NCBI GenBank assembly: GCA_944389445.1
Contig: CALXMJ010000326.1
Location: 1 to 35,682 of the forward strand
Length of the DNA: 35,682 bases
Reading direction: 5' to 3'
Origin: an uncultured Victivallales bacterium
Lineage (GTDB): Bacteria > Verrucomicrobiota > Lentisphaeria > Victivallales > UBA1829
Each line of letters begins with the position of its first letter. Position 1 is the first letter of the stretch. Under the pieces are notes generated by a model. It was not told where the DNA came from. It saw only the letters and a list, made by a program, of their open reading frames with translations, and ran no database searches. This document shows, piece after piece, positions 3,322 through 32,096 of this stretch. Both the position numbers and the translations under genes were made by a program.

Positions 3322-3355
3322 GGAAGATCCTTTTGCGTTTGTGAGAAGAGCCCTG

Positions 3356-8486: not shown

Positions 8487-8510
8487 CCCCGAAGTTTTCC
8501 TTTTTCGGGG
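8487..8510 (+). terminator. Hairpin CCCCGAA-N10-TTCGGGG followed at a distance by three T6-8 tracts (8521-8550); weak terminator candidate
   Basis: 7-bp GC-rich stem paired by hand. The T tracts start 10 nt after the stem, so it is not a canonical intrinsic terminator. An alternative pairing GAGAAAGG (8477-8484) / CCTTTTTC (8499-8506) competes with it. Confidence 0.3.
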
Positions 8511-8633
8511 AAAGCGGATGTTTTTTCTGATTTTTTTTGATTTTTTTTCAAGAATGCCTTTGTTTATTTGAAGAATGAACATAAGTTACAGGAATGGAAG
8601 CCGCCGTTCAATGGCGGCAGGGAGCTTTGGAAC

Positions 8634-13012: not shown

Positions 13013-13027
13013 GTGAAAAAGACTCCT

Positions 13028-13060
13028 GGGGAAATTCCACTCTATTGCTGGAATCTCCCC
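13028..13060 (+). terminator. Hairpin 16 nt after the GH2 stop (12-bp stem with 1 mismatch, 9-nt loop, no U tract)
   Basis: GGGGAAATTCCA (13028-13039) pairs with TGGAATCTCCCC (13049-13060). It sits exactly where base composition drops from high to low GC. Confidence 0.35.
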
Positions 13061-13158
13061 ATCCGTCCCTGATGCCGTTGCGCGCTTTACTACAAGCTGC
13101 CAGAGGCGTGAAAGGATATTCCGCCGAACCGGAATTCTATATGGAAAATCTCTGAGCA

Positions 13159-14103: not shown

Positions 14104-14136
14104 CGCGTTCTCTCATCCTGGCGGAAAGACGCTCCT

Positions 14137-17287: not shown

Positions 17288-17356
17288 GTTTGCTGTATCC
17301 CTTTACTCAAAATTTATTATACTATAGCGCCATTTATGAAAAATAACAGCATGAGC

Positions 17357-18100
17357 TTAAATCACGTGTAAGAATTTCAGAATCCGCCCGATCAAGTAAC
17401 GACAATAAAGGAGAAAATAAACTGGACGTGATATGAGTGCATGTGCAAATTGGACTCGTCTGGCATCCATCAGAGTTTTTCTCCAGTCAGCCGAACTGAT
17501 CCCGTCGCTTTCCATAAAATTGGATACGATGAAATCCATTGGCAGAAATCGGGCGCTCTGCAGATGAAGACGCAGTAGGAAATCATAGTCCGCAGCAATT
17601 TTGAATTGCGGTCGGAACATGCCGTATTTTCGGTAAGCATCCCTGTGAACAAAACAACCGGGATGAGCCATCGGCGTTTCCGGTAGAAAAAGATCGGAAT
17701 GACGGAGAAGTTTTTTTTCCATTCCCCGGCTGTCCAAAAATCGGACGATTCCATAATAGACATCAATATTACAGTGCTTTTCTGCTACAGTTTTTATGTT
17801 TTGCAGGGTTCCCGGTTCATAGAAATCATCGCTGTTGCAGATGCCGATGATTTCTCCTTTTGCCATACGGATTCCTTTGTTCATGGCATCATAAAGTCCA
17901 TTGTCATGTTCTGAAATCCATCGCATCCGTCCTTCGAAGCGCGGTTCATATTCCCGGATGATATCGAGAGTGGAATCGCCGGATGCTCCGTCAATGACAA
18001 GGTATTCATAATCCCGGCATGACTGTGAGAGGATTGATTCGAATGTCCTTCGAATTGTTTTTTCACTGTTTTTGCAGACGGTTATGATGGTGAATTTCAT
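17357..18100 (-). CDS. Glycosyltransferase family 2 (small WcaA-like type, 247 aa)
   Basis: MKFTIITVCKNSEKTIRRTFESILSQSCRDYEYLVIDGASGDST...ICNSDDFY. Trimmed to the ATG at 18100, which overlaps the upstream stop (ATGA at 18097-18100). The 45-aa extension in the track has no family resemblance. Confidence 0.88.
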   Translation of the reverse strand: MKFTIITVCKNSEKTIRRTFESILSQSCRDYEYLVIDGASGDSTLDIIREYEPRFEGRMRWISEHDNGLYDAMNKGIRMAKGEIIGICNSDDFYEPGTLQNIKTVAEKHCNIDVYYGIVRFLDSRGMEKKLLRHSDLFLPETPMAHPGCFVHRDAYRKYGMFRPQFKIAADYDFLLRLHLQSARFLPMDFIVSNFMESDGISSADWRKTLMDARRVQFAHALISRPVYFLLYCRYLIGRILKFLHVI

Positions 18101-19653: not shown

Positions 19654-19877
19654 TATTTTCAGATAAAATAGTTTCAGATAAATGAAAATATGCACATTGA
19701 ATTTCCTTCGAGTGAATATGGTTAAAAGGTTTATTCTGCAGTCAGTTGCATATTTTGAATCATCCTGTTTTTCCATTATCTCTCATATGGGGAATCTGCA
19801 GAGTCCTGTTGAAAATGGAAATAGATCAGTTTTGTCCCGGAGGATTTTGCCGGAAAGTTGTAGATACGCGTGCATTG

Positions 19878-20930
19878 TCATTGAAAAGATTTCCTTTTTC
19901 TGCTGGGGAATATATTGTTACAGAGATCGTATAGCTTTCGCAAAGGGTATGTCGCTTTCCAGGGCAGGGATGTCGCAATGAGTTCGTATTTCTCTTCCAG
20001 ATTTGCAATGTAATGCGTTTGTATGGAGATATAATTTTCCTTCCCCCAGTTGTCCATCAGTATTTGATGCCCTTGGAGCAGAAGATCTGGAACAAGCCGT
20101 TTCAACGATTCAAATGTTTCCAACATGTATTCCGTTTTCAGAAAATCCAGACGTTTCCTGTATTGTTCCGGTAAATGAGCCTGCTGGAAAAATGAAGATA
20201 AAATATCAAAAATTTTAATAGCGGAGGCTTTTTGTCGAAATTGAAAGACGGATAGTTGTGGTATTCCGGATGGTCCATTCTCAAAACAGTAATAATATAC
20301 CTTGTCATGAACGTATAAAAGATTTTTTGCATAATACATGATGACAGTCATCCGCAGAAGATCTTCGCAGGAACAATTCGGAGTCTCAATAAAATTGCAT
20401 TGTTTCAGCAGCGAGGTCCGAAATACATTGCCGCAGAGATTCCAGCGTATTTTACCTTCCAGGAAATATGTTTGGAATAAACAGTCCTTATTAAAAACTG
20501 TTTTATGGGGAAATAGACGATGCTCATAATGATTTTTTATCATGGAGGGAATCTTTTTGCCAATAAGAGTTGTGGCAAAATGGACAATATCATATTCCGT
20601 ATCCGAGAGATATTCAGAAGCTTTCCTTAGATAATTTTGATCCAAGTAATCATCAGAATCACAAAAGACGCAGTATTTCCCTGTTGCCAGATCAATTCCC
20701 GTTTTTCTTGCCATAACCATCCCATAATTCTGTGGGTGACAGTAAATACGAATTCGAGAATCCTTGGCAAGATATTCTTCCATGATTTCCTGACTTTTAT
20801 CTGGGGATGCATCATTGACAAGAATGAGTTCAAAGTCTGTAAAGGTTTGATGAATCAGGGAATCCAGACAGCGACGAAGATAACGTTCTACATTATATAC
20901 CGGAACTAAAATAGAAAAAAATGGTTTCAT
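19878..20930 (-). CDS. Glycosyltransferase family 2, paralog B
   Basis: FSILVPVYNVERYLRRCLDSLIHQTFTDFELILVNDASPD...FCDSDDYL. Collinear similarity to 15195-16241. Confidence 0.9.
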   Translation of the reverse strand: MKPFFSILVPVYNVERYLRRCLDSLIHQTFTDFELILVNDASPDKSQEIMEEYLAKDSRIRIYCHPQNYGMVMARKTGIDLATGKYCVFCDSDDYLDQNYLRKASEYLSDTEYDIVHFATTLIGKKIPSMIKNHYEHRLFPHKTVFNKDCLFQTYFLEGKIRWNLCGNVFRTSLLKQCNFIETPNCSCEDLLRMTVIMYYAKNLLYVHDKVYYYCFENGPSGIPQLSVFQFRQKASAIKIFDILSSFFQQAHLPEQYRKRLDFLKTEYMLETFESLKRLVPDLLLQGHQILMDNWGKENYISIQTHYIANLEEKYELIATSLPWKATYPLRKLYDLCNNIFPSRKRKSFQ

Positions 20931-21090
20931 AATAGTCGTTGCAATTTCCAGAAAGTTCTTGTTTTCTTTTTGCTGCCTTTGAGATCAATGTGCATTTCCC
21001 TAATTATCTATTCGTAAAAAAGGGGAAGACAATGCCGTTTTCCTGCATCTGTAATTTATGACTAAAAAAATCAAAGACCCCTTTTATATT

Positions 21091-21119
21091 ATAATAGCAT
21101 AAAAATAAATAGAAAGCAA
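21091..21119 (-). promoter_or_regulatory. Candidate promoter for the minus-strand glycosyltransferase operon (TTGCTT-N17-TATTAT with TGn extension)
   Basis: On the minus strand, TTGCTT is the reverse complement of 21114-21119 and TATTAT is the reverse complement of 21091-21096. It lies in an AT-rich divergent intergenic region. Confidence 0.35.
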
Positions 21120-21171
21120 ATAGTTTATTTTTTGTAATCGGGGATCTTCGAGCCTTTTTTTACTTTTTTTC

Positions 21172-21200
21172 TTGACAGGTACTCTAAATAGAATTATTTT
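21172..21200 (+). promoter_or_regulatory. Candidate promoter for the radical SAM gene (TTGACA-N17-TATTTT)
   Basis: Perfect -35 at 21172-21177 and TATTTT at 21195-21200. The first ATG (21207) is only 6 nt after the -10. Either the mRNA is leaderless or the real start is the ATG at 21222, behind AAGGTGG (21211-21217). Confidence 0.4.
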
Positions 21201-21206
21201 AATTCT

Positions 21207-22223
21207 ATGGAAGGTGGTCGTATGGTTGTAAAAATGTCTTTCGCGTGTTTGCGGGAAATGTTCCGCTCCTTTCTGGATGTTTTCTGGCTTCGTTTTCTGC
21301 AGACATCTTTTCTGCATAAATTCATCGCATATTGTTTCAAGATTCTCTTGGCGCCCTTTATCTTTTTGAGATTTTTTTATTTGAGATTCCTCCTGTTGCG
21401 AATTCCATATTTGCCCCAGCTTTCACTGGATATAACGAGTCATTGCACTTTAAATTGCCGCTATTGTTGTGCGTTGCTTCCCTATGACAAAAATAGAAGG
21501 CATTCTTCCAAGGAAGAAATTCTTGAAGATATTCACTGTTTGCTTCAGGTAGTACAAAAGATCGGAAGTTTGCATATTCTGGGAGGAGAAGCCTTGCTTC
21601 ACCCGGATCTGCCTGAGATTATGGAAAATTTAATCAAGATTGCCCGGATTAATGAAATTCATCTGATCACCAATGGTTCACTGCTGCCTTCTGCAGAGTT
21701 ACTGAATGTCCTTAGAAATCCCAAGGTTTCGGTAGAAATCAGCGATTATATTAATGTCCAGAATCGTTGCAATGAGGTCTTCCAATGTTTTAAAAAGGAG
21801 TCGATTCATGTTTCGTTTCGAATCCTCAGTTGGCAAAATCTGCATTTCTCTCCATCAAAGAAGCGAACCGGGAAACAGTTGAAAGAGATTTTTGACAGAT
21901 GTTGCAGCAAGACATGTCTTAATTTGCGTGACGGGATATTTACCCGCTGTCAAAGCGCCTGCCATCTTATGGAAATTGGAATGGTTCCCTATAAGCCTGG
22001 TGATTTTGTCAATATACGCCATTCAGGTTCTCGAGAAGAAAGAAAAAGAATACTTCGCGAGTTGGAAAACCTCCTTTTTAATAAAAAATTCCTTCAGGCT
22101 TGTGATTATTGTGATGGTTATTATAAAGATGGCGATTTAATTCCTGTTGCGGAGCAGCTCCCTTTCGGAACTTTTCTTTCTTTGCAGGATGAGAATTCAG
22201 AAGGTGTCCGAGATAACGGCTAG
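21207..22223 (+). CDS. Radical SAM enzyme with hydrophobic N-terminal segment and Cys-rich C-terminal region
   Basis: CX3CX2C motif in LDITSHCTLNCRYCC. GGEALL SAM-binding motif. Seven Cys in the last ~110 residues (RCCSKTC...RCQSAC...ACDYCDG). The start is ambiguous between 21207, 21222 and 21234. Confidence 0.85.
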   Translation: MEGGRMVVKMSFACLREMFRSFLDVFWLRFLQTSFLHKFIAYCFKILLAPFIFLRFFYLRFLLLRIPYLPQLSLDITSHCTLNCRYCCALLPYDKNRRHSSKEEILEDIHCLLQVVQKIGSLHILGGEALLHPDLPEIMENLIKIARINEIHLITNGSLLPSAELLNVLRNPKVSVEISDYINVQNRCNEVFQCFKKESIHVSFRILSWQNLHFSPSKKRTGKQLKEIFDRCCSKTCLNLRDGIFTRCQSACHLMEIGMVPYKPGDFVNIRHSGSREERKRILRELENLLFNKKFLQACDYCDGYYKDGDLIPVAEQLPFGTFLSLQDENSEGVRDNG

Positions 22224-22999
22224 TTTTTTTGATAGAGATCCAATACGTCGTTTATTTTTCCAGCGGCCGCCAGTTTTCCTGCTTTTAACAAGATTCCAGT
22301 CTTGCATAAAGATTGTATTGCTGACGTATTATGGCTGATAAACAGGATGGTGCGTCCTTCACTGCGGGAGATGTCGTTCATTTTTGCAATACATTTTTTC
22401 TGGAACTCGGAATCCCCGACCGCGAGGACCTCATCGATCAGAAGAATCTCCGGGTCCAGATGCGCCGCTACCGCGAACGCCAGCCGGACATACATTCCGC
22501 TCGAATAACGTTTGACCGGCGTATCCAGAAATTTTTCCACGCCGGAAAACGCCACAATCTCATCAAATTTCGCTTTGACCTCCGCGCGTTTCATTCCCAG
22601 AATCGCACCGTTCAGATAAATGTTTTCCCGTCCGTTCAGCTCCGGATGAAATCCCGTTCCGACCTCCAGAAGACTTGCCGCACGGCCGCGCATGATGATA
22701 CGTCCCCTGGTCGGTTCCGTGATCCGGCTGAGAAGCTTCAGAAGGGTCGATTTGCCTGCCCCGTTCCGTCCGATGATGCCGACCCTGTCACCCGGTTCGA
22801 TTTCGAAGGAGACATCCTCCAGCGCATGGAACTCCTCAAGATCAACATGGGCCCGGTTCAGGCTGAATGGATGCCGGAACCGTTCAATCAGTCCCTTTCC
22901 GAACATGGTTGCCGATTCGACAAAGGTATCCACACCCCGTTTCTGGTGACTGATTTCGTAATATTTGCTCAGATGTTCTACTGTGATAATCGGCTTCAT
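22220..22999 (-). CDS. wzt: Polysaccharide-export ABC transporter ATP-binding protein (Wzt/TagH/KpsT-like, nucleotide-binding domain only)
   Basis: Walker A GRNGAGKST, signature-like YSSGMYVRLAFA, Walker B LLIDEVLAVGD. At 259 aa there is no C-terminal carbohydrate-binding extension. High GC. Confidence 0.92.
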   Translation of the reverse strand: MKPIITVEHLSKYYEISHQKRGVDTFVESATMFGKGLIERFRHPFSLNRAHVDLEEFHALEDVSFEIEPGDRVGIIGRNGAGKSTLLKLLSRITEPTRGRIIMRGRAASLLEVGTGFHPELNGRENIYLNGAILGMKRAEVKAKFDEIVAFSGVEKFLDTPVKRYSSGMYVRLAFAVAAHLDPEILLIDEVLAVGDSEFQKKCIAKMNDISRSEGRTILFISHNTSAIQSLCKTGILLKAGKLAAAGKINDVLDLYQKN

Positions 23000-23886
23000 T
23001 GCTTTTTCTCCCGCAGAAACGGCAGATAGCCAAGGATAAAAGCCCTGAAATGTTCCGGAATCAGAATATGAATAATCTGACGGAACTTTGTCGATTTGAA
23101 TTCTTTGTATCTGAAATCGAACATGAAATTCACGATCTGCGGCATTTGTGTCCCATAATGCTGTAACAGAAATGGTTTCAGCCGTTGTTTTTGTTTTTCA
23201 TTAGGATAATAACTCCAGTACAAAGTCAGCATCCAGAAAATTCCAAGCAAATCATCATCAGACAAATCCGCAAGATGAACCATTCCAATATTCGGAATGG
23301 TATTCCCGGAGAGTGTCTGAGGAATAAATTTTTCTCCTTTCAAGGCAGAAAAAAGCGTTGCGCATGTGTAGCCGAATTTTAGGGAGAAATTCAGATGATA
23401 GGCAATATCATGCAGCACAACAACAGCATTTTTTTTCAGATACGGATAAATCATCAGAAAATCCAGCAGTTCGCCCGGATTTGTATGAGCTGTATCGAGA
23501 AGACAGAGATCGATATCAGAACCAATGGTATCCATAAAATCCAGTGCGATACTTCCAGTAGAAAGGGTCCATTTGCTCATAAGTTCCGGGAATGACTTTT
23601 TGACAAGAAAGCCGGTTTTTAAAGTAGCATTTTTATAATAGGACTGACTCAAATCAATCGAATAAAGATGGGCACCGGGAATATCCTTGATTGCATTCAG
23701 AATCAGGGCACTGGATGCTCCGGCGGCGACTCCGATCTCTAAAATTTTCCTAGGCCTGTGTTTTCGTATGATCCCGTTTAAAAATGCCGATTCCACTGGC
23801 AGCATTTCTGAATATATTTGAAAATCGGTATGGCGGATCACTTCCAATACGGATGTTTCATAGTTTTCATAGATAAATTTCCTCAT
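22996..23886 (-). CDS. Class I SAM-dependent methyltransferase (Methyltransf_24/O-methyltransferase-like)
   Basis: Motif I ILEIGVAAGASSALIL, an acidic loop YSIDLS, and LLDTAHTNPGELLDF...VVVLHD. Its stop overlaps the wzt start (ATGA at 22996-22999). Low GC, unlike both neighbours. Confidence 0.85.
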   Translation of the reverse strand: MRKFIYENYETSVLEVIRHTDFQIYSEMLPVESAFLNGIIRKHRPRKILEIGVAAGASSALILNAIKDIPGAHLYSIDLSQSYYKNATLKTGFLVKKSFPELMSKWTLSTGSIALDFMDTIGSDIDLCLLDTAHTNPGELLDFLMIYPYLKKNAVVVLHDIAYHLNFSLKFGYTCATLFSALKGEKFIPQTLSGNTIPNIGMVHLADLSDDDLLGIFWMLTLYWSYYPNEKQKQRLKPFLLQHYGTQMPQIVNFMFDFRYKEFKSTKFRQIIHILIPEHFRAFILGYLPFLREKKQ

Positions 23887-23902
23887 AAAAATCCCTTTTG
23901 GC

Positions 23903-24748
23903 TTAGATCACATCCGCGAATTCGCGCTCCATGAAACGAAAGATAAAATATCCACCCAGCAGGAGCAGAAGGGAGATCGCCGCGGACATTACCAGCGATG
24001 GCAGGTAGAGCTGCGTTCCGAACAGTGACCACCGGACTCCGTCAATAATTCCAGCCAGCGGATTCAGACTGAACAGCAGTCGCCAGTTTCCAGGCACAAC
24101 CGAGCTGATGAATCCCACCGGTGAAACATACATCCCCAGCTGAAGTGCAAAAGGAACCGCAAAACGGAAATCCCGGAATTTGACGTTTAACGCTGAAATG
24201 ATGTAAGTGGCTCCGAGGGAAGTAATTGCTGTTAAAAAAATGAAAAAAGGAAGAAATACAATCCGCCAGTTCGGGAAAACTCGATAGTAGAAGAACAGCG
24301 GGATGAATACAATGGCCGAAATCAGAAAATCCGTCAGGCTTACCGTCATACTGGTGGACGGAATGATCAGCCGGGGAAAATAGACCTTTGAAATCAGATT
24401 GGAATTGTTCAGCAGGGATTCGCTCCCGATGGAGACCGTGTTGTTGAAGAACTGCCAGACCAGCATTGCGGCATAGACGGTCAACGGATACGGCACATTG
24501 TCCGACGGCAGATTCGCGATCTTGCTGAAGACAATCGTAAATGCGATCATTCCCAGCAGCGGACGGATGATGCTCCATGTGATTCCGATTACCGTCTGCT
24601 TGTACCGGACAATGATATCCCGCCACGCCAGAATCAGAAACAGCTCCCGGTACAGCCACAGATCATGCAGGTAGCGGGAATGTGTTCGTCCAGCCTCAAT
24701 TATCAGAATATGTTCTTCCGATTCTCCATTCATACCGTTTGTCCGCAC
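23903..24748 (-). CDS. wzm: ABC-2 type polysaccharide-export permease
   Basis: LWLYRELFLILAWRDIIVRYKQTVIGITWSIIRPLL is the typical Wzm/TagG N-terminal motif, followed by about 6 hydrophobic helices. GTG at 24748 has GAGAGGAAG 7 nt upstream. ATG at 24733 is an alternative. Confidence 0.9.
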   Translation of the reverse strand: MRTNGMNGESEEHILIIEAGRTHSRYLHDLWLYRELFLILAWRDIIVRYKQTVIGITWSIIRPLLGMIAFTIVFSKIANLPSDNVPYPLTVYAAMLVWQFFNNTVSIGSESLLNNSNLISKVYFPRLIIPSTSMTVSLTDFLISAIVFIPLFFYYRVFPNWRIVFLPFFIFLTAITSLGATYIISALNVKFRDFRFAVPFALQLGMYVSPVGFISSVVPGNWRLLFSLNPLAGIIDGVRWSLFGTQLYLPSLVMSAAISLLLLLGGYFIFRFMEREFADVI

Positions 24749-24934
24749 CTGTTTTCTTCCTCTCTTGTTCGGAGAAACATAACATCTTTTTCCCTTTTTT
24801 CAATGGGTGGGGACAAATTAAGAAGAAGATTAGCCGTGCCGATTGGCGTTGTTGCCGTGATCGGACAGGAGAATGGATTTCCGGCTTCCCGGTTTTCTGT
24901 GGAGATGCTCTGATTCGGACCGGTGTATTCTCTG

Positions 24935-26221
24935 TCAGGATTCCAAGTCGTGACGGACACGCTTCAGCAGTTCGGGTATATTGAGCTTCTGCGGGCATTT
25001 GGAAAGACACGCGCCGCAGTTCACACATGCCGACGCCGGTGATCCGCGCTGAATCGGCGACATGGAAACCGTATAATCGAAAAGCGCCCTCTTTTTATCC
25101 CTGTGCACCAGATAATTGTTGTAAACATAGGCAAATATATATCCAATCGCCACGTTATGCGGGCAGGGGATGCATTGATAACAGCCGGTGCAGTCGATGT
25201 GCCCCGGGGTCCGGCGGAAAGCTCGGATTGCGACTCCGAGCGCCTTCCTCTCATCCGGAGTAAGCATGTTCGGTTTCGCTTTCGACGCATAACGCAGGTT
25301 CGCTTCGACATCGGCCATCGACCCCATGCCGCTCACTGCGACGCTGACTTCCGGGATGTCCCAGAGATAATCCAAAGCCCATTCTGTATCGGGCTTCTCG
25401 ACTCCGGTTGAACGGAGTGCCGCTCGCATGGAGGACGGCAGATTCGCCAGGAATCCGGTTCGTACCGGTTTCATCACGGCAAGTCCCATTCCATTGGCCG
25501 CGGCGTACTTTGGGCCGAGACAGCCGGCTTCATATTCATAGTCGAGGTAGTTGTGCTGGATCAGACAGAAATCCCAGGGCGCGGATTCCACCACTTCTTT
25601 GAACAGCTGGAGACGGTCATGAAACGAAAAACCAGCAAAACGGATTTTTCCCTGATCCTTGAGCTTCATGATCTTATCTATCAGTTTGAATGGGATCACT
25701 TTCTCTTTCCAGCCGCGATGCATAATCATGTGGATATGATAAAAATCAATGACATCGGTTCCGATTGTTCTCCGGGATTCGTCGAAAAGTCTTTCGAAAT
25801 CTTCCGGAGCCTTCATGATCCACCATGGGGCTTTGGATGTCACGTAAACCCGGCTGCGCCAGTGCCCTCTGAGGGCTCTTCCGGCGACTTCCTCGCTTTG
25901 TCCGCCGAGATAGACCCGTCCCGTGTCGATGTAGTTCACTCCGCCCTCAATGGCGCGATGGATCATCGCGACGCTCTGATCGAAGTCCACGTTTTTTCCA
26001 TTGGAGAGCATCGGCAGTCTCAGAAGTCCGAAGCCGAGAGCCGAGACATTTACTCCTGTTCGCCCCATCGGTCGATACTGCATTCGGGGATTGAAGTTCA
26101 AGATCGACCCTTCTGGTTTGAGCAATGGCGTTTTCGCCGCTTTCAGAAGGGCACCCTTGCCGAACACGGCACTGGCGGCTGCTGCCGCTGCCGCGGATTT
26201 GAGAAAATCACGTCTGTTCAT
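24935..26221 (-). CDS. Aldo/keto reductase fused to a C-terminal 2x[4Fe-4S] ferredoxin-like domain, with a twin-arginine signal
   Basis: Tat motif MNRRDFLKSAAAAAAASAVFG. AKR core (GFGLLRLP, YIDTGRVY...). C-terminal CTGCYQCIPCP and CVNCGACLSKCP cluster motifs. AAGGAAAC Shine-Dalgarno. Confidence 0.88.
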   Translation of the reverse strand: MNRRDFLKSAAAAAAASAVFGKGALLKAAKTPLLKPEGSILNFNPRMQYRPMGRTGVNVSALGFGLLRLPMLSNGKNVDFDQSVAMIHRAIEGGVNYIDTGRVYLGGQSEEVAGRALRGHWRSRVYVTSKAPWWIMKAPEDFERLFDESRRTIGTDVIDFYHIHMIMHRGWKEKVIPFKLIDKIMKLKDQGKIRFAGFSFHDRLQLFKEVVESAPWDFCLIQHNYLDYEYEAGCLGPKYAAANGMGLAVMKPVRTGFLANLPSSMRAALRSTGVEKPDTEWALDYLWDIPEVSVAVSGMGSMADVEANLRYASKAKPNMLTPDERKALGVAIRAFRRTPGHIDCTGCYQCIPCPHNVAIGYIFAYVYNNYLVHRDKKRALFDYTVSMSPIQRGSPASACVNCGACLSKCPQKLNIPELLKRVRHDLES

Positions 26222-26230
26222 GATGTTTCC

Positions 26231-26710
26231 TTAATTTGACGGAGAAGTCGCAAGGCGGATTGTGATTTCCCGATTGTCTGCCCGCTGGAGGATTTTTATG
26301 CCGTCCCCGTCGATTTTTCCGAGAAGAATCAGATTTTTCGAATATCGGAAATCGCGATAGAATATAGCCAGATTTCCCCATGGCGCGTAATAGGCGATAT
26401 CCCCGGTGACAGGGGAGAATCCTTCCGGAGCGCCGTCTGAGGGAAGTTTTTCCGGCAGATCGGCAATTTTTTCGGTGCCGTTGAAGTCGCTCAGACGCAG
26501 TGTGAGCGGCAACTGTGCCAGAAACTTCCTTGCGGACGCATTGTCATACAGGACAGCGTGGAGAAGATGACCGTCCACATGGATCTGCAGTTTCTGATTC
26601 ATTGTTTTTCTTTCTGGCGCTGGCGATGCGCCGGGCGTTCCGGAATTTCCGCAGGCGTTCATCGCAGACATCAGGATTCCGGAGAGGAGAAAAAGTGGAA
26701 GAGTTTTCAT
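26231..26710 (-). CDS. Cyclophilin-like fold protein (exported, possible lipoprotein)
   Basis: Signal MKTLPLFLLSGILMSAMNACG. Body LYDNASARKFLAQLPLTLRLSDFNGTEKIADLP...GDIAYYAPWGNLAIFY matches my recollection of the cyclophilin-like family found beside flavodoxins. AAGGAG Shine-Dalgarno. Confidence 0.75.
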   Translation of the reverse strand: MKTLPLFLLSGILMSAMNACGNSGTPGASPAPERKTMNQKLQIHVDGHLLHAVLYDNASARKFLAQLPLTLRLSDFNGTEKIADLPEKLPSDGAPEGFSPVTGDIAYYAPWGNLAIFYRDFRYSKNLILLGKIDGDGIKILQRADNREITIRLATSPSN

Positions 26711-26735
26711 TCTGACTCCTTATTGTTCCGCATAG

Positions 26736-27233
26736 TTATTTCATTTTCATTTCCGGTACGAGCGGATTCTGGTCAATCAGTTCCAGTTTCCGAACCATTG
26801 CGAGAGAGTTTTGTTTGTATTTCCGGAAATGAGACGTTTTGATATGATGCTCATAGGCGGCGCGGTCCGCGTAGATTTCCAGAACGGCAATCCGCTCCGG
26901 GTGTCTCTTCTCCTGCATGGAATACATCAGCAATACGCCGGATTCCTGCGCCATTGATTTGCGCCCGCACTCCGCAACGAGTACAAGATACTCTGAAATT
27001 CGTGCCGGATCGACCTCGATCCGTGAAATCCGGACAATGCTTTCCGGAGTGACAGCCCTTCCTGATTTCCGTTGTTCCTTCTTCGCTTTTCCCCGAGGCA
27101 TGGACATACCGGCACGGCTGATTGCGGAGCTGGCGGAATGCGGCGCCTGTCCCGGGGAATTCCCCGGAAGAGCAAACGGAACCAGCAATGCTGCGATTCC
27201 GATTCTTATGCAGGAGAAGGAAGATTGCCTCAT
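26736..27233 (-). CDS. Antibiotic-biosynthesis-monooxygenase (ABM) domain protein with signal peptide
   Basis: Signal-like MRQSSFSCIRIGIAALLVPFALPG. ABM ferredoxin-like fold: VRISRIEVDP...VLEIYADRAAYEHHIKTSHFRKY. AGAGGAG Shine-Dalgarno. Confidence 0.78.
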   Translation of the reverse strand: MRQSSFSCIRIGIAALLVPFALPGNSPGQAPHSASSAISRAGMSMPRGKAKKEQRKSGRAVTPESIVRISRIEVDPARISEYLVLVAECGRKSMAQESGVLLMYSMQEKRHPERIAVLEIYADRAAYEHHIKTSHFRKYKQNSLAMVRKLELIDQNPLVPEMKMK

Positions 27234-27247
27234 TCCGCTCTCCTCTT

Positions 27248-28294
27248 TTATTTCCCCGCGGTTGCGGTTTGATAGTCCGAGTCGGAGACCGGCTCAAGCC
27301 ATGTGTTTTTATTGGTTTCCGGATTGCACTCAATGGCAAGATGTGCGAACCAGTGGTCGGGGGATGCTCCGTGCCAGTGATCGACATCCGGGGGGATTTC
27401 AACCACATCGCCGGGCAGCAGTTTCCGTGCCTCTCTGCCGCGTTCCTGGTAAAAGCCGATGCCGCCGACTGCGATCAGAAGCTGTCCTCCGGTATGACGA
27501 TGCCAGTTGTTCCGGCATCCCGGTTCGAAGGTGACGTTGGAGAGGGGAACCCCGAGCCGTTTGTCTTTTGTCAATGGAGCAAGATACGATTTCCCGCTGA
27601 AATATCTGGCATAGGCCGTGTTCTCGCCTCCGCGGGGAAAGTGGCTGACGGCATTGCTTTTGACAATCGCCAGGATTTCATTGATCTGCTCGTCCTTCAC
27701 TCCGTTGCGTTTGCCGATTCCGATATGGGATTTCAGCTGGCTGTCGACTCCATCCATGGCTGCGAGGGCGGCAATGGTTGCGATTTCGCGGGTTCGCCAG
27801 TCGAGATTGTCGCGGCTGAAAATATCGCCGAAGAGATGCGCTTTCAAGTATTCGTCAATCGCCGGAGCGAACTCAAAAAGCGCACCTTTGACCGGCGCTC
27901 CGCAGAGTTTTGTCTGGTTTGCTGTTCCGAAGTCGATGCTTTTTCCCTCCGGGAGCGGGCCGGGAAGTCTTCCGATGGCGTCCTTGACGCCTTTTGCTTC
28001 GCGTTCCCGCAGGAGCGCCATAAAGTTTCCAAGCGCATTGAGGCTGCGCGGAAAACCGCAATAGGCATAAAGCTGAACGAGGATTTCCCTGATCTCATTC
28101 ACGGTTGTTCCGGAGTCGAGTCCGGCGGCCAGTGCGGTTTTCAGGTTCGGCATGTCGCCGCGCGCAGTGTGCATCGCGATGCAGACGATTTGCCGTTCTT
28201 TTTCCTTCAGAGTTGTCATGGGATTTTTTGCCTCCAGTTGATTTATGCAGCAGAAAAGGGCGATGAATATTCCGGATAAGATGATTCTGCGCAT
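27248..28294 (-). CDS. Carboxymuconolactone decarboxylase (AhpD-like) x2 fused to a cupin domain, with signal peptide
   Basis: Two CMD repeats (...NEIREILVQLYAYCGFPRSLNAL and ...DEQINEILAIV). C-terminal cupin NNWHRHTGGQLLIAVGG...GDVVEIPPDVDHWHGA. Trimmed to the ATG at 28294 (MRRIILSGIFIALFCCINQLEA), 7 nt after the flavodoxin stop. Confidence 0.82.
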   Translation of the reverse strand: MRRIILSGIFIALFCCINQLEAKNPMTTLKEKERQIVCIAMHTARGDMPNLKTALAAGLDSGTTVNEIREILVQLYAYCGFPRSLNALGNFMALLREREAKGVKDAIGRLPGPLPEGKSIDFGTANQTKLCGAPVKGALFEFAPAIDEYLKAHLFGDIFSRDNLDWRTREIATIAALAAMDGVDSQLKSHIGIGKRNGVKDEQINEILAIVKSNAVSHFPRGGENTAYARYFSGKSYLAPLTKDKRLGVPLSNVTFEPGCRNNWHRHTGGQLLIAVGGIGFYQERGREARKLLPGDVVEIPPDVDHWHGASPDHWFAHLAIECNPETNKNTWLEPVSDSDYQTATAGK

Positions 28295-28301
28295 ATTCCC
28301 C

Positions 28302-28886
28302 TCACTTTTGAATGTCTGCCGCTTCACCGACCCATTTTTTCAATGCGGCTTCGGCATTCCGGATGCTTCCGCCGGAAAATGCTCCGGCTTTGCCGAAGTT
28401 TGCTTTCGGACATGTTTTCCGCATATCCCGTTCGCAATTCGCCATTCCGCCTCCGCCGTGCGTGACAAAGGGAATGACGGTTTTGCCGCTGAAGTCATAT
28501 TCGGAGAGAAAACTGCGGACCGGCGGAGCCATTGTACTCCACCAGTTCGGAGTCCCGACAAAAATGACATTGTATTTTGCAAAATCCTGGACTTTTGCGG
28601 CGAGTTCCGGTCTGGTTCCTTCCCGGCACTCTTTTTTCGCCTGATCGACACATGCGCTGTAATTCGACGGATACGGCTTGAGCGGTTTGATTTCAAACAA
28701 CGTTCCTCCGGTGAGTTTCTGAATCTGTTCCGCCGCGAACCGGGTGTTTCCGCTCCACGAGTAGTACGCGATCAGGACTCTGCCGGATTCCGTGTGGATC
28801 TTTTGCGCGGCGGCGTTCTCCGCGGAACAGCCTGCCGCTCCGAAAAAAGATGCCGCCATTACGAGTGCCATTGTTCTCTTTTTCAT
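28302..28886 (-). CDS. Flavodoxin (flavodoxin_4-like), exported/lipoprotein-type N-terminus
   Basis: MKKRTMALVMAASFFGAAGC, then VLIAYYSWSGNTRFAAEQI...IFVGTPNWW...IPFVTHGGGG. Trimmed to the ATG at 28886, with AGGAGG 6 nt upstream. Confidence 0.85.
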   Translation of the reverse strand: MKKRTMALVMAASFFGAAGCSAENAAAQKIHTESGRVLIAYYSWSGNTRFAAEQIQKLTGGTLFEIKPLKPYPSNYSACVDQAKKECREGTRPELAAKVQDFAKYNVIFVGTPNWWSTMAPPVRSFLSEYDFSGKTVIPFVTHGGGGMANCERDMRKTCPKANFGKAGAFSGGSIRNAEAALKKWVGEAADIQK

Positions 28887-29134
28887 TGCTGCCTCCTTGA
28901 TTTGGTTGAGTTTTCCTGTTTTATTTGAAATACGAGATAATCCAGACAATCGACTTTTTGCTGTGCCGCATGGAGCTTCGACAGCAGGGAAAAACGCTGA
29001 TGCGTGAGAAGTCGCAGCTGCTCCCGGATGTCGCCGTTTTTCCGCAGAATGAGGATTTTCGCAATCAGCTGCGAACCGCATCCCGCATCCCGCAGATTGC
29101 GGACCAGCAGTGTCGTTTCATCAGAACCACCCAT
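28883..29134 (-). CDS. Small helical protein of unknown function (83 aa), first gene of the flavodoxin operon
   Basis: MGGSDETTLLVRNLRDAGCGSQLIAKILILRKNGDIREQLRLLTHQRFSLLSKLHAAQQKVDCLDYLVFQI... Its TGA overlaps the flavodoxin ATG (ATGA at 28883-28886). It resembles small conserved hypothetical proteins I recall from anaerobe flavodoxin clusters. ATG at 29134 has GGAG 12 nt upstream. Confidence 0.6.
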   Translation of the reverse strand: MGGSDETTLLVRNLRDAGCGSQLIAKILILRKNGDIREQLRLLTHQRFSLLSKLHAAQQKVDCLDYLVFQIKQENSTKSRRQQ

Positions 29135-29179: not shown

Positions 29180-29208
29180 ATTATAATCGATTTTTGCAAA
29201 AATAACAA
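29180..29208 (-). promoter_or_regulatory. Candidate promoter of the exported-redox operon (TTGTTA-N17-TATAAT)
   Basis: On the minus strand, TTGTTA is the reverse complement of 29203-29208 and TATAAT is the reverse complement of 29180-29185. Confidence 0.4.
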
Positions 29209-29220
29209 ATACTTATTTAT
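29202..29220. promoter_or_regulatory. Candidate LysR-type box (ATAA-N11-TTAT) overlapping the -35 of the operon promoter
   Basis: ATAACAAATACTTATTTAT is an imperfect dyad of T-N11-A type. It lies between the divergent promoters. Confidence 0.3.
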
Positions 29221-29235
29221 TATGGGTTCCAATGC

Positions 29236-29264
29236 TTGACAGGCATGGATTTCCGTGTTATGTT
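29236..29264 (+). promoter_or_regulatory. Candidate lysR promoter (TTGACA-N17-TATGTT with TGn extension)
   Basis: Perfect -35 at 29236-29241, and TGTTATGTT at 29256-29264. AAAGGAGG Shine-Dalgarno at 29277-29284. Confidence 0.4.
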
Positions 29265-29291: not shown

Positions 29292-30200
29292 ATGGAAATC
29301 CGGGTACTGCGTTATTTTCTTGCTGTGGCACGCGAAGGGACGATTGTTGGTGCGGCGAAGTTTCTGCATGTGACCCAGCCGACTCTGTCACGGCAGCTTC
29401 AGGATCTGGAGGAGGAACTCGGACAGCAGCTTTTCCTTCGCAGCAACCGTTCCATTACCTTGACTCCGGAAGGGATGCTTCTGAGGAAACGGGCGGAGGA
29501 AATCCTGGAGATTGTCAGTCGGACCGAGGCCGATTTCAATTCGATGGGAGAGAATATTGGCGGCAGTGTCCATATCGGCGGGGGGGAATCCCGGGCGATG
29601 AAGCTGATTGCCGAAACCATCCGGGAACTGCGCGGCGAATATCCTGATATCCGATGCAATCTTTACAGCGGCAATGCCGAGGATGTCGTGGAGCGGCTCG
29701 ACAAGGGAATCCTGGATTTCGGAATTCTGATTCAGCCGGTCGATATTTCCAGATATGATTCCATCACCCTGCCGGTCAGGGATGTATGGGGGGTGGTCAT
29801 GCGGAAGGACAGTCCTCTGGCGGCAAAGAAGTCCATTTCCCTTCGCGATCTGCAGAAACTTCCTTTGATCTGTTCCCGGATCAGTATCCGGCAGAGCTCC
29901 GTGAAAAACGCGTATGCCGAATGGTTCGGCAGAAGTTTTGAGAAACTGAATATTGTCGCGACCTACAATCTGATTTACAATGCCGCATTGATGGTGGAGG
30001 CCGGGATCGGTTATGCACTCGCCCTTGATGGCCTTGTCGATGCGCTCGGAAACCGGACGCTTTGTTTCCGGCCGCTGGAACCGAAGCTGGAGTCCGGATT
30101 GAATATTGTCTGGAAAAAGTACCAGGTCTTCTCCAAAGCCGCCGAGGTTTTTCTGGAGAAAATCCGGGAGCGCTTCCCCGAAGCGGATTCCGACGCCTGA
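29292..30200 (+). CDS. LysR family transcriptional regulator
   Basis: MEIRVLRYFLAVAREGTIVGAAKFLHVTQPTLSRQLQDLEEELGQQLFLRSNRSITLTPEG. Divergent from the flavodoxin operon. Trimmed to the ATG at 29292. Confidence 0.92.
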   Translation: MEIRVLRYFLAVAREGTIVGAAKFLHVTQPTLSRQLQDLEEELGQQLFLRSNRSITLTPEGMLLRKRAEEILEIVSRTEADFNSMGENIGGSVHIGGGESRAMKLIAETIRELRGEYPDIRCNLYSGNAEDVVERLDKGILDFGILIQPVDISRYDSITLPVRDVWGVVMRKDSPLAAKKSISLRDLQKLPLICSRISIRQSSVKNAYAEWFGRSFEKLNIVATYNLIYNAALMVEAGIGYALALDGLVDALGNRTLCFRPLEPKLESGLNIVWKKYQVFSKAAEVFLEKIRERFPEADSDA

Positions 30201-30325: not shown

Positions 30326-30351
30326 GATGAATATTGTTAAAAGGTTCTGAA

Positions 30352-31386
30352 ATGGCACAGTCTTATATTTCCATGCGTTCTTTCGCTAAGATGGCCGGTG
30401 TTTCCGTGGCGACCGTCTCGCATGTTTATTCCAATCCGGACAGTGTTTCAAAAGCAACAGCTAAACGTGTTTTGGAACTTGCGGAAACGGTTGGTTTTTC
30501 TCCGAATGCCGTTGCCAAAGCCGCCTTCGGGGAATCGACCCAGAGCATCGGCATCCTTCTTCCGAGTCTTTCCGACAGTTATTTCGGGGGAATTGCCCGG
30601 GCGATTCAGAAACGCTTGATTCAGGCCGATTATCTGCCGATTTTCATTGATTCCGTCGATTCGTCGGAAGATTCTCTCAGCCGTCTTCTGAAGCACAAGG
30701 TGGATGCGCTTGTCATCGGCTGTTCCGATGAAAATCTCAACATTCCCAAAATCTGCCGGAATCAGATGACACGGCTGCCGATCGTTGCCATTGAACAGAT
30801 GCGTCCGGGTGTTTGCTCGGACTCTGTGCTCAACGATGATTACGATGGAGGTTTTCAGGCGGGAAAACATCTGATTTCTCTGGGGCACCGGCGATTCGGA
30901 GCCTGCACCTATGGCGAGGAACGGAGCAACTGCATTCCGCGAATCATCGGTTTCCGCGATGCCATCCGCCACTCCGGAGGGACTCTGGAAGATCGTTTCA
31001 TTACACACCTGACGATTCACGGAGCGGAGAACGACGGAGACAGGAAGATGCGGAAGGAGCTGGAGAAAATTCTTTCCGCATCGGATGCCCCCACCGCTAT
31101 TTTTGCCACAACGGATTACCTTGCTCTCCATGTTTATGATGCTGCAAAAAAAATCGGACTGCGGATTCCGGAGGATGTCAGTGTCGTCGGGTTCGGCGAT
31201 CTTCAGTTCTCGCCATACGTCAATCCTCCGTTGACGACCATTCGTCAGAATCCGGCGCTCATCGGTACAAAAACGGCGGAGCTGCTGCTGAAACGGCTGA
31301 AACATCCGGATCGAAATATGGAAAACATCTGCGTACCGGTGGCGCTGCTGGTTCGCGGTTCAACAAAGGAGAGAACGATAAAATGA
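30352..31386 (+). CDS. LacI family transcriptional regulator
   Basis: HTH MRSFAKMAGVSVATVSHVYSNPDSVSKATAKRVLELAETVGFSPNAVAKA plus a sugar-binding core. ATG at 30352 (the track start 30334 is TTG). Confidence 0.9.
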   Translation: MAQSYISMRSFAKMAGVSVATVSHVYSNPDSVSKATAKRVLELAETVGFSPNAVAKAAFGESTQSIGILLPSLSDSYFGGIARAIQKRLIQADYLPIFIDSVDSSEDSLSRLLKHKVDALVIGCSDENLNIPKICRNQMTRLPIVAIEQMRPGVCSDSVLNDDYDGGFQAGKHLISLGHRRFGACTYGEERSNCIPRIIGFRDAIRHSGGTLEDRFITHLTIHGAENDGDRKMRKELEKILSASDAPTAIFATTDYLALHVYDAAKKIGLRIPEDVSVVGFGDLQFSPYVNPPLTTIRQNPALIGTKTAELLLKRLKHPDRNMENICVPVALLVRGSTKERTIK

Positions 31387-32096
31387 AGGTAAAATTTTTC
31401 ACACTTATAGAGCTTCTGATCGTTGTTGCAATCATAGCAGTTCTTTGCGCATTGCTGCTGCCGGCATTGAACGGCGCAAGAAGCAAGGCCAATATCATCT
31501 CCTGTCTGAACAATGCGAAGGAGTGCGGGAGGCAGATGCTGATGTATGCGAACGATTCTCATGCCTGGATTCCGGTCGGAGTCAATACGGGAGATCCACA
31601 CTCCAACTGGCACGAGACTTTGCTGGCATTCGGTTATCATGGGAAAAAGAAATCCAATTGTCAGAAAAACGCGATTTGCCGCTGTCCGGGGGATCCCGAT
31701 TTCGGCATCGCCTACTGGACCATCGACGGAGCAAAGCTGACGGAAAAAGGAGGAAAGAAAACCAGTCTGGCCCCAGGTTCGGGGTTCAACTCGGACGGAA
31801 TCAATATCGCCTCTTTTCCCTCTCCTTCCACGACGGTTATGTTCACAGAGGGGGCGTGGATGAATGGAGAAGGAAAACCGGTATACCGTTATTTTCCCAG
31901 TGGTGTCTGGAGCACATATTATGTCTATCTCCGCCATCAGCGGAAGGCGACATTTTATTGGATGGATGGTCACGCAACCAACGGCGTGGTAGATGCCTAT
32001 GCAAGGGCAACCCAGCCGTGGAACGGTCTCTGGAATAGCAATGGTTTTATTGATCCGGCCGGAATCCTGTACCCGTTCAGTGCGTTTCGAAAATAA
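31383..32096 (+). CDS. Prepilin-type N-terminal cleavage/methylation domain protein with H-X9-DG motif (DUF1559-like)
   Basis: MKVKFFTLIELLIVVAIIAVLCALLLPALNGAR, and near the C-terminus RHQRKATFYWMDGH (H-X9-DG). The ATG overlaps the LacI stop (ATGA at 31383-31386). AAAGGAGAG Shine-Dalgarno lies inside the LacI 3' end. Confidence 0.88.
   Translation: MKVKFFTLIELLIVVAIIAVLCALLLPALNGARSKANIISCLNNAKECGRQMLMYANDSHAWIPVGVNTGDPHSNWHETLLAFGYHGKKKSNCQKNAICRCPGDPDFGIAYWTIDGAKLTEKGGKKTSLAPGSGFNSDGINIASFPSPSTTVMFTEGAWMNGEGKPVYRYFPSGVWSTYYVYLRHQRKATFYWMDGHATNGVVDAYARATQPWNGLWNSNGFIDPAGILYPFSAFRK

Follow-up and report, generated by a model that had tools for sequence, protein, structure and literature searches.

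Why should enzymes that metagenome annotation and metabolic models normally treat as cytoplasmic, namely aldo-keto reductases (AKR), flavodoxins, CMD proteins, cupins and ABM proteins, occur together in one gene cluster in which every enzyme begins with what looks like an export signal? The question is raised by six minus-strand genes in contig CALXMJ010000326.1 (assembly GCA_944389445.1) of an uncultured Victivallales bacterium, of which positions 1 to 35,682 were analysed and are called here the window. The answer that we propose comes in two parts of unequal firmness. That the genes form an exported, LysR-controlled operon is, judged from the sequence comparisons described below, highly probable; that this operon encodes an inducible periplasmic module for small-molecule redox chemistry or detoxification has, in our estimation, about an even chance of being right. 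The six open reading frames (ORFs) run head-to-tail from 29134 to 24935 and are accompanied by a divergent regulator gene:

29134-28883, minus strand: small protein of 83 amino acids (aa), without Pfam or NCBIfam match
28886-28302, minus strand: flavodoxin (Pfam Flavodoxin_4, E = 1e-33)
28294-27248, minus strand: CMD-CMD-cupin protein (Pfam CMD twice, and Cupin_2)
27233-26736, minus strand: ABM protein (Pfam ABM, E = 3.5e-12)
26710-26231, minus strand: cyclophilin-like protein (Pfam Cyclophil_like2, E = 1.9e-35)
26221-24935, minus strand: AKR with iron-sulphur (Fe-S) domain, AKR-Fe-S (Pfam Aldo_ket_red, E = 7.4e-31; Fer4_9, E = 5.3e-08; TAT_signal, 26.8 bits)
29292-30200, plus strand, divergent from the operon: LysR-type regulator (HTH_1, E = 1.5e-22; LysR_substrate, E = 1.8e-30)

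The genes for the small protein and the flavodoxin overlap by 4 nt (ATGA), and the later gaps measure 7, 14, 25 and 9 nt. Coordinates and spacing reproduce those of an earlier account of this DNA made from its letters alone (the sequence-only reading), the N-terminal peptides quoted there are exact, and its family calls are all backed by Pfam, the small protein excepted. No convincing internal terminator was found within the operon, and no credible Rfam match to a riboswitch or other RNA element was found in the region.

What could govern the expression of these genes? The intergenic region of ~157 nt between lysR and the operon contains three predicted elements:

29180-29208, minus strand: operon promoter TTGTTA-17-TATAAT, the best promoter-like site of the region (10/12 matches)
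29232-29246: LysR-type box 1, ATGCCTGTCAAGCAT, ATGC-N7-GCAT (T-N11-A), centred at about -66 from the inferred operon start
29201-29217: LysR-type box 2, AATAAGTATTTGTTATT, AATAA-N7-TTATT, at about -36, overlapping the operon -35 hexamer

The operon promoter is situated ~45 nt upstream of the first ATG. In an alignment of the lysR-operon intergenic regions from 24 related loci, box 1 is present in 24/24 at a constant distance from the lysR start, and box 2 in 21/24, ~29 nt (28-29) from box 1; both are kept whichever gene leads the operon, be it that of the small protein, the CMD-cupin protein or the flavodoxin. A promoter-like site for lysR itself (TTGACA-17-TATGTT, plus strand, 29236-29264) has its -35 hexamer TTGACA within box 1, which fits autorepression. 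The predicted two-box layout is the textbook arrangement of LysR-type activators. The classical divergent operons of the CatR/BenM/HcaR type share with it the divergent regulator, the T-N11-A dyad near -65, the second site over the -35 hexamer and the placement of the regulator's own promoter in box 1; the products of those aromatic operons are cytoplasmic, whereas the products here are signal-tagged. The regulator likely starts at MEIRVL (the ORF could open at 29232). Its orthologues, 61-88% identical and with a conserved start ME(I/L)R(V/L)L, stand divergent beside the cluster in 24 non-redundant loci, and a LysR match lies at most 6 kb away in 28 of 80 CMD-cupin loci. None of the NCBIfam equivalog models, those for HcaR, CatM, BenM and PcaQ included, reached its cut-off on the protein, the best being CidR with 147 bits against 415. 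With a single promoter, conserved boxes and the divergent regulator gene, co-transcription and LysR control appear well supported at the level of sequence, in agreement with the sequence-only reading, which had called the operon LysR-linked.

The second component of the main finding is export. Signals were called by a rule that requires an uncharged 9-residue window of mean Kyte-Doolittle hydropathy >=1.7 within ~15 residues of the start codon. On whole N-termini the rule misflags Rossmann beta-1 strands, for example those of guanylate kinase and the GT2 glycosyltransferase, and therefore only the version restricted to the pre-domain extensions of orthologues was used as evidence, with LysR and the small protein as controls. 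Signal-like N-termini were found in 53/58 flavodoxin, 75/79 CMD-cupin, 22/22 ABM, 3/4 cyclophilin-like and 19/19 AKR orthologues, and in none of the controls (LysR 0/30, small protein 0/24). In the window, a Shine-Dalgarno (SD)-like sequence stands 5-6 nt before each signal-encoding ATG (AGGAGG, GAGG, AGGAG, AGGAG and AGGA). Downstream in-frame starts are without such a sequence, the single exception being codon 26 of the CMD gene with GGAGG 11 nt upstream. The hydrophobic segments sit in extensions ahead of domain boundaries set by solved homologues, the domains starting at residue 36 in the flavodoxin, ~29 in the CMD protein, ~63 in the ABM protein, ~37 in the cyclophilin-like protein and 47 in the AKR. 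AlphaFold2 models of the cyclophilin-like protein and the AKR show low confidence in these stretches, too. The extension sequences drift, yet across several phyla they stay in-frame, hydrophobic and N-terminally positive (orthologues down to 33-60% identity). Some features survive the drift: the flavodoxin …FFGAxG↓C (the arrow marking the predicted cleavage site), the Cys of the cyclophilin-like protein and the AKR M(N/D)RR(D/E)FLK. Two of the five signals contain a lipobox-type Cys (flavodoxin, cyclophilin-like), two are of Sec type (CMD-CMD-cupin, ABM) and one is a twin-arginine translocation (Tat) signal (AKR, RRDFLK). Each natural fusion protein found among the relatives has exactly one signal segment, at its extreme N-terminus.

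The export signals claimed for the five enzymes in the sequence-only reading are borne out by the SD-backed ATGs, the extensions kept in orthologues and the clean controls. Against the possibility which that reading itself had raised, of real starts lying downstream of the hydrophobic segments, SD-like sequences favour the upstream ATGs in all cases but the one mentioned. Its premise that these families are usually cytoplasmic does not extend to the closest subfamilies, which are exported as a rule: among Cyclophil_like2 homologues of >=140 aa, 87/97 have signals, and the AKR-Fe-S clade is Tat-tagged. A trace of the cytoplasmic past may nevertheless persist. Met codons at the domain starts of the CMD protein (codon 26, 28219-28217), the cyclophilin-like protein (codon 37, 26602-26600) and the AKR (codon 47, 26083-26081) match the starts of cytoplasmic homologues, such as M-x-YR-x-(M/L)G in the AKR, and the same holds for the Tat-tagged flavin mononucleotide (FMN) reductase of the relatives. 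The conservation of Met at ancestral domain starts suggests that the exported forms derive from cytoplasmic ancestors by N-terminal extension.

The N-terminus of the AKR, MNRRDFLKSAAAAAAASAVFG…, with the RRDFLK Tat signal and a mildly hydrophobic core (h-region), fits the pattern (S/T)-R-R-x-F-L-K and passes two Tat models, Pfam TAT_signal with 26.8 bits (cut-off 22.7) and TIGR01409 with 18.2 (cut-off 16.7). A twin-arginine-like pattern ([RK]R-x-hydrophobic-hydrophobic) occurs in 92/120 database AKR-Fe-S homologues, including Desulfovibrio- and Cloacibacillus-named ones; most of the others begin inside the h-region, which points to miscalled starts. By these measures the AKR-Fe-S qualifies as a predicted Tat substrate. 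The C-terminal Fe-S domain has two cluster motifs, CxxCxxCxxCP … CxxCxxCxxxCP, with all eight Cys invariant. Within the barrel, Y104, K130 and H164 of the catalytic tetrad are invariant among 53 homologues, and D99 is nearly so (>=90%). The canonical nicotinamide-contact Asn is replaced in this clade by an invariant Phe200 (GFSFHD in place of GVSNF), and the Lys/Arg that contacts the 2'-phosphate is absent, with VSGMGS in place of IPK/IPG…R and a conserved Q222 nearby. Both changes may bear on cofactor use; the loss of the Asn is the only hint towards the suggestion of the sequence-only reading that the flavodoxin or the Fe-S domain might stand in for NAD(P)H. The AlphaFold2 (AF2) model (mean predicted local distance difference test, pLDDT, 85.5; residues 20-38 disordered) matches AKR structures with a target-normalised TM-score (TMt) of up to 0.82 and a query-normalised one (TMq) of at most 0.56, the barrel alone being matched, and neither sequence nor fold searches of the PDB found a solved structure combining an AKR barrel with an Fe-S domain. 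Tat-exported periplasmic oxidoreductases with cofactors include the glucose-fructose oxidoreductase of Zymomonas mobilis with its tightly bound NADP and the Fe-S subunits of enzymes of dimethyl sulfoxide (DMSO)-reductase type. As in those cases, the Tat signal would let a folded AKR, loaded with Fe-S clusters and possibly with nucleotide, reach the periplasm. Unlike them, the passenger in the window is an AKR barrel fused to a HdrC/GlpC-like two-cluster domain, and a molybdopterin or flavin catalytic partner is not encoded in this case.

The flavodoxin has a lipoprotein-type signal, MKKRTMALVMAASFFGAAG↓C, and AGGAGG 5 nt before its ATG. The PDB entries 3klb, 4j8p and 4ici align with it from residue 31-36 on, 3klb and 4j8p being FMN-bound, and its FMN loops are intact (YYSWSGNT, the phosphate loop; PNWW; THGGGG). 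The [ST]GA[ST] motif for flavinylation by ApbE is absent in the window protein and in 58/59 orthologues, the loop being the short canonical YYSWSGNT, and on its sequence this flavodoxin is of the non-covalent FMN type. Among 53 signal-bearing orthologues, 33 have [GAS]C after a weakly hydrophobic h-region; measured against the lipobox [LVI][ASTVI][GAS]C, the AAG↓C of the window protein presumably satisfies the looser PROSITE-type rule. The idea of a degenerate Tat signal gained no support, since the dibasic N-region, at a broadly similar rate in CMD-cupin proteins (30/53, 57%, vs 29/75, 39%; strict RR in 1/53), does not discriminate between export routes. As a separate observation, flavodoxin homologues in three loci (L074, L079 and L080, from bins labelled unclassified bacterium, Anaerovoracaceae and Gemmiger) start with MNRKEFI(K/Q)…(A/G)C, in which an R-K pair of Tat-like character precedes a lipobox Cys. 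Compared with the Sec-like K-K-R signal of Victivallales, this form hints that the export route of the flavodoxin differs between lineages.

The small protein encoded directly upstream of the flavodoxin in nearly all loci that have both genes, in either gene order, is predicted to be helical and cytoplasmic, has no signal peptide and retains the motifs NL(K/R)DAGC and (I/V)DCLDYL. Exceptions to the pairing are L021 and the Victivallis vadensis type strain (L007), where no flavodoxin match was found. A word-indexed homologue search with the 83-aa protein returned 6 matches, whereas an exhaustive profile search gave a family of 1259 representative clusters, the best 150 of which are, with few exceptions, stand-alone proteins of 70-100 aa. 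The family profile weakly resembles residues 54-113 of the MerR regulator 3gp4 (E = 0.0066); the protein gave no helix-turn-helix and no MerR Pfam match, and its likeness is to the MerR C-terminal half alone. The ATGA overlap could permit translational coupling between the small protein and the flavodoxin.

Three observations from related loci touch on this gene pair. In L092 a full-length MerR_1 regulator (8314-8673, 119 aa) is encoded directly after the genes of a DUF6282 protein and an AKR-Fe-S, whereas the Victivallales clusters have the mini-protein without helix-turn-helix instead; this may be a clue that the mini-protein partners a MerR-type sensor or serves as its decoy. In a Victivallis contig (L084), a DHBP synthase gene (ribB, riboflavin biosynthesis; 3666-4274) adjoins the lysR of the cluster; it has no counterpart in the window and could reflect either coincidence or a link to flavin supply. 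In V. vadensis DSM 14823 (NZ_QEKH01000023.1), a short ORF in the gap between lysR and the CMD-cupin gene (~5860-5980), MNKKAVACMMASAVFSMFGSPAEA…, matches the flavodoxin signal peptide of the relatives without a flavodoxin domain, and looks like what is left after deletion of a flavodoxin gene.

In the CMD-CMD-cupin protein, a Sec-type signal (MRRIILSGIFIALFCCINQLEA↓K) is followed by two PcaC-like CMD domains and a metal cupin (HxH...Q...H). Neither CMD domain has the CxxC motif of AhpD, and the PcaC model TIGR02425 scores 72.4 bits, under its cut-off of 155.7, which identifies the CMD fold alone. The cupin model for (R)-mandelonitrile lyase (NF049940, MandnitrLy) likewise remains under its cut-off (122.1 bits against 140). 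The cupin aligns over its full length with TM1010 (2f4p, E = 2.8e-31) and with the Mn hydroxynitrile lyases GtHNL (4bif, 4uxa) and AcHNL (8oz8), the E-values ranging from 2.8e-31 to 5.5e-19, and it contains their His/His/Gln/His metal-ligand pattern; it differs from these lyases in following a signal peptide and two CMD domains on one polypeptide. Orthologues 76-82% identical to the whole protein are present in Victivallis and uncultured Lentisphaeria genomes.

The ABM protein consists of an N-terminal signal (h-region IRIGIAALLVPFALPG), a basic linker and an ABM domain that aligns with PDB 3kkf (E = 1.2e-28 across residues 65-165). Its orthologues either have a signal of their own or form the C-terminal part of a fusion with a signal-bearing alpha/beta hydrolase. 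An origin of the window gene by in-frame deletion from such a hydrolase-ABM fusion was rejected, a global alignment revealing no homology upstream of the ABM domain. The cyclophilin-like protein has a signal with a conserved Cys (…SAMNA↓C) and a Gly/Pro/Ser linker. Its MNA↓C is atypical in having Asn at -2; Cys at this position is common in homologues, and the loose lipobox pattern is found in 30/120. The AF2 model is confident (pLDDT 85.6) except for residues 1-30 (48-57). A sequence search of the PDB with this protein returned no match, and a Foldseek search with the model found TM1367 (TMt 0.75), AF2241 and, as more remote matches, the cyclophilin-like domains with which the Pictet-Spenglerases KslB and McbB bind small molecules. 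These model-based fold matches yield no function for the protein.

How general is such a combination of genes? The sequence-only reading had suggested that similar sets accompany LysR genes in anaerobes without having been assigned to a pathway, and the comparison of gene neighbourhoods agrees. In Victivallales the usual order starts with the divergent lysR, followed by CMD-cupin, small protein, flavodoxin, (hydrolase-)ABM, (signal-bearing nitroreductase) and (cyclophilin-like), and ends with a Tat-FMN reductase, a Tat-DUF6282 protein, AKR-Fe-S and (a second Tat-AKR-Fe-S), the parentheses marking optional members. Two alternative gene orders exist, and content varies widely between close relatives. 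In 44/80 loci the CMD-cupin gene has a flavodoxin gene at most 300 nt away. Fusions with one signal peptide (SP) each recur in several combinations: SP-flavodoxin-CMD-CMD-cupin (5 loci), SP-CMD-CMD-cupin-flavodoxin, SP-CMD-CMD-cupin-ABM and SP-hydrolase-ABM.

Outside Victivallales, the same families recur beside LysR, AraC or MerR regulators. A Desulfovibrio locus (L081) combines a signal-less flavodoxin with a signal-bearing CMD protein, a Tat-AKR-Fe-S and a Tat-FMN reductase; upstream of these it encodes a Tat-Fer4 protein and a small hydrophobic one without Pfam match. A contig whose AKR is named Cloacibacillus sp. An23 (L083) has DUF4405, DUF6282 and AKR-Fe-S genes adjacent to one another. 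A third locus (L088) belongs to an organism with an SLH-domain protein, possibly of Negativicutes, and the families are found again in L092 and L093. In a locus with Bacteroidota-like lipoprotein signals (L090), an ABM lipoprotein, a signal-bearing metallo-beta-lactamase-cupin, a Tat-AKR and a flavodoxin-cyclophilin-like lipoprotein are encoded next to a resistance-nodulation-division (RND) efflux pump and an araC gene. The last of these lipoproteins, a Flavodoxin_4-Cyclophil_like2 fusion (13484-14545), begins with the signal …TTAC↓SEDD and continues with an acidic linker of low complexity. This arrangement resembles the lipoprotein surface-export signal of Bacteroidota, and in that lineage the protein may be displayed on the cell or on outer-membrane vesicles instead of facing the periplasm.

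The AKR-Fe-S is 86-89% identical within Victivallales and shares 81% identity with the Cloacibacillus sp. An23-named sequence (Synergistota), much more than would be expected across phyla. L085 and L086 have a phage-type integrase next to the cluster, and the flanking genes are not conserved in relatives. The cross-phylum identity and the flanking integrase point to horizontal spread, and suggest that the AKR-Fe-S has moved recently between gut bacteria. In sum of gene content, the set appears common to Victivallales, Desulfovibrio, the Cloacibacillus-named sequence and Bacteroidota-like and Negativicutes-like contigs, and is, to judge from these loci, modular and horizontally shuffled. Database names for its proteins are generic (e.g. 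‘aldo/keto reductase’, ‘cyclophilin-like fold protein’), and searches of the literature turned up no account of exported systems with AKR-Fe-S, CMD-cupin or non-flavinylated Flavodoxin_4, nor of the gene set, PMC11334425 being the one relevant paper.

The nearest described system is the ApbE-dependent extracytosolic flavoprotein electron transfer, two defining features of which do not appear here. Extracytosolic electron transfer has been linked to Flavodoxin_4 and FMN_red proteins flavinylated by ApbE, together with DUF4405 (Huang et al., mSystems 2024, PMC11334425). The DUF4405 protein was shown to be a haem-b protein, representing a new cytochrome class with a proposed role in transmembrane electron transfer, and the flavinylated Flavodoxin_4 has an insertion between beta-1 and alpha-1 with the [ST]GA[ST] motif (PMC11334425). 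An extracytoplasmic Flavodoxin_4 is shared with the window, and FMN_red with the window's relatives; a DUF4405 gene adjoins the DUF6282-AKR-Fe-S pair in L083 alone, where its position beside an orthologous AKR in one phylum makes it a plausible electron entry route. The window flavodoxin, in contrast, is without the insertion and without the motif, and the absence of the latter rules out membership in the ApbE-flavinylated class. Neither apbE nor a DUF4405 gene was found among the Pfam-scanned ORFs of the window, a set that does not include five glycan ORFs at 13159-19776. The published flavinylated systems are mostly from Firmicutes, and CMD, cupin, AKR and LysR go unmentioned in their description (PMC11334425).

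What could the exported enzymes do together? We infer that the products act jointly in the periplasm on a small molecule, by means of flavin and Fe-S carriers. LysR would bind the two dyads (~-66 and ~-36) of a sigma-70 promoter, providing effector-dependent activation together with autorepression. A single transcript would then encode the MerR-C-terminal-like mini-protein, the Flavodoxin_4 lipoprotein, the CMD-CMD-cupin and ABM proteins, the cyclophilin-like lipoprotein and the AKR-Fe-S. The flavodoxin would be membrane-anchored and bind FMN non-covalently, the CMD-CMD-cupin and ABM proteins would be exported by Sec, and the AKR with its two [4Fe-4S] clusters by Tat. The module would reduce or otherwise transform a reactive or aromatic compound, of quinone, carbonyl or lactone type, before its entry into the cytoplasm, with electrons relayed by the flavin and Fe-S carriers, not by free NAD(P)H, and supplied through membrane components encoded elsewhere in the genome. 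The repertoire of the relatives, their regulator types and the efflux neighbour resemble responses to electrophiles, quinones and xenobiotics. The quinone/electrophile detoxification regulons of MhqR, YodB and CatR in Bacillus subtilis comprise nitroreductases, azoreductase-type FMN reductases, alpha/beta hydrolases and dioxygenases, a repertoire similar to that of the window and its relatives taken together (nitroreductase, FMN reductase, alpha/beta hydrolase, cupin and AKR); those regulons are cytoplasmic, NAD(P)H-driven and MarR-controlled, whereas the set in the window is signal-tagged and LysR-controlled, and the likeness is one of functional analogy alone.

Several observations weigh against a periplasmic redox or detoxification module. 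The last gene of the operon is not followed by a predicted terminator, and the signal calls come from a home-made rule and motif conservation. The retained domain-start Met codons make minor cytoplasmic isoforms possible, mainly of the CMD-cupin protein. The acquisition of FMN by the flavodoxin outside the cell would need an explanation, because its signal is of the Sec/SPII (signal peptidase II) type and it is without the flavinylation motif; moreover, the Desulfovibrio homologue has no signal, and the gene has been lost in the V. vadensis type strain. We know of no precedent for direct Fe-S electron transfer into AKR chemistry. The Tat-FMN reductase and Tat-DUF6282 genes that precede AKR-Fe-S in nearly all relatives are missing from the window, which therefore represents a trimmed variant of the gene set, and no membrane component for electron entry is encoded by its Pfam-scanned ORFs. 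These absences also bear on the ‘complete periplasmic pathway’ of the sequence-only reading: the operon, the LysR control and the export signals stand, and the completeness is not supported.

The likeliest of the alternatives is respiratory, and we hold it to be unlikely. It would have the AKR-Fe-S, with flavodoxin and partners, act as the terminal reductase of an anaerobic respiration on an organic acceptor from diet or host; a membrane cytochrome would pass on electrons of the quinone pool, and energy would be conserved rather than a compound detoxified. The Tat signal and the Fe-S domain are indeed typical of respiratory reductase subunits, a Tat-FMN reductase accompanies the set in most relatives, and candidate partners appear in the DUF4405 haem-b protein (PMC11334425) adjacent in the Cloacibacillus-named contig and in the Tat-Fer4 and small hydrophobic proteins encoded upstream in Desulfovibrio. 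Yet neither the Pfam-scanned ORFs of the window nor the examined Victivallales loci include a gene for a membrane quinol dehydrogenase or cytochrome, and the control by LysR, AraC or MerR together with the mix of hydrolase, cupin and ABM looks more like a xenobiotic response. Victivallis, moreover, is known as a fermenter.

A bolder form of the periplasmic module is conceivable, in which a nicotinamide-independent AKR is fed via its own Fe-S domain by the exported flavodoxin or FMN reductase, and the CMD-cupin, ABM and cyclophilin-like proteins form a physically coupled exported complex acting on xenobiotics from diet or host, the whole being an unrecognised mobile system common to diderm gut anaerobes. 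We give this elaboration a low probability; if it were true, the AKR-Fe-S would be the first nicotinamide-independent AKR.

Could the proteins instead share nothing more than a regulator and a compartment, each being an independent exported enzyme for a different compound? Such a co-regulated toolbox would account for the wide variation of gene content and order among close relatives and for the loss of single members, the V. vadensis type strain lacking the flavodoxin and the window the FMN reductase and DUF6282; the integrase beside some clusters and the cross-phylum transfer indicated by the 81% AKR identity also agree with it. We nonetheless see a slim chance for it, as repeated fusions join flavodoxin, CMD-cupin, ABM and cyclophilin-like domains in single exported polypeptides, and the small-protein/flavodoxin and DUF6282/AKR pairs are nearly invariant.

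Similarly slim is the chance of a periplasmic defence against oxidants, in which an OxyR-like LysR would control an AhpD-like CMD protein, O2-consuming ABM and cupin enzymes and a flavodoxin as reductant, scavenging O2, peroxide or radicals. The CMD family does include the AhpD-type peroxidases, use of O2 is frequent among ABM and cupin folds, the Desulfovibrio cluster has a ferritin gene behind it, and the LysR protein gives partial matches to OxyR models. Those matches, however, fall far under the cut-off (84 bits vs 329), both CMD domains are PcaC-like and without the AhpD CxxC, and no gene for a peroxiredoxin, rubrerythrin or catalase accompanies the set in any examined locus. Very improbable, finally, is an ordinary cytoplasmic redox operon whose hydrophobic N-termini are not functional signals, with true starts downstream or the proteins staying inside: Met is kept at the domain starts M26 (CMD, with its GGAGG), M37 (cyclophilin-like) and M47 (AKR), and some database homologues are annotated from an internal Met, but SD-like sequences mark the upstream ATGs with that one exception, the extensions keep frame, hydrophobicity and Cys or RR in distant orthologues, and fusions bear one such segment only, at the extreme N-terminus.

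If the enzymes do act in the periplasm as proposed, many abundant gut diderms would carry uncharacterised, regulator-controlled extracytoplasmic chemistry. Extracytosolic flavoprotein electron transfer would be extended beyond ApbE-flavinylated proteins and beyond Firmicutes, and questions would arise as to how FMN is supplied to an exported flavodoxin, what reduces an AKR without NAD(P)H and which compounds from the diet, the host or drugs are altered ahead of their uptake. Experiments are within reach: V. vadensis DSM 14823, whose genome has one form of the cluster, is cultured, and the LysR boxes, being conserved, offer a ready reporter.

The surroundings of the operon add little to its interpretation. 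On its 3' side, a gap of 186 nt separates it from an ABC-2/Wzm-Wzt glycan export cluster with a promoter-like site of its own. The block at 13000-24750 has a low G+C content (0.37-0.43 vs 0.51-0.57 elsewhere in the window) and contains genes for a GT2 glycosyltransferase, a radical-SAM protein, a Methyltransf_24 protein and a Wzm/Wzt-type ABC-2 permease with its ATPase. The block was probably acquired by horizontal transfer, serves surface-glycan export and has no relation to the operon. The separate low-G+C island and the lack of conservation of the flanks in relatives led us to reject a functional tie between the operon and the glycan genes, and with it the suggestion in the sequence-only reading that sugar-derived aldehydes might be substrates.

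Elsewhere in the window, two ORFs of >1000 aa, neither with a Pfam match, overlap nearly fully on opposite strands (145-3312, plus; 238-3453, minus). Beyond lysR, a gene for a LacI-type regulator (30334-31386) directly precedes the plus-strand ORF 31383-32096, which has no Pfam match at E <= 0.001 and starts with MKVKFFTLIELLIVVAIIAVL…, a prepilin-type N-terminal cleavage/methylation segment. Such an N-terminus is typical of the many DUF1559-like proteins of the PVC (Planctomycetes-Verrucomicrobia-Chlamydiae) group.

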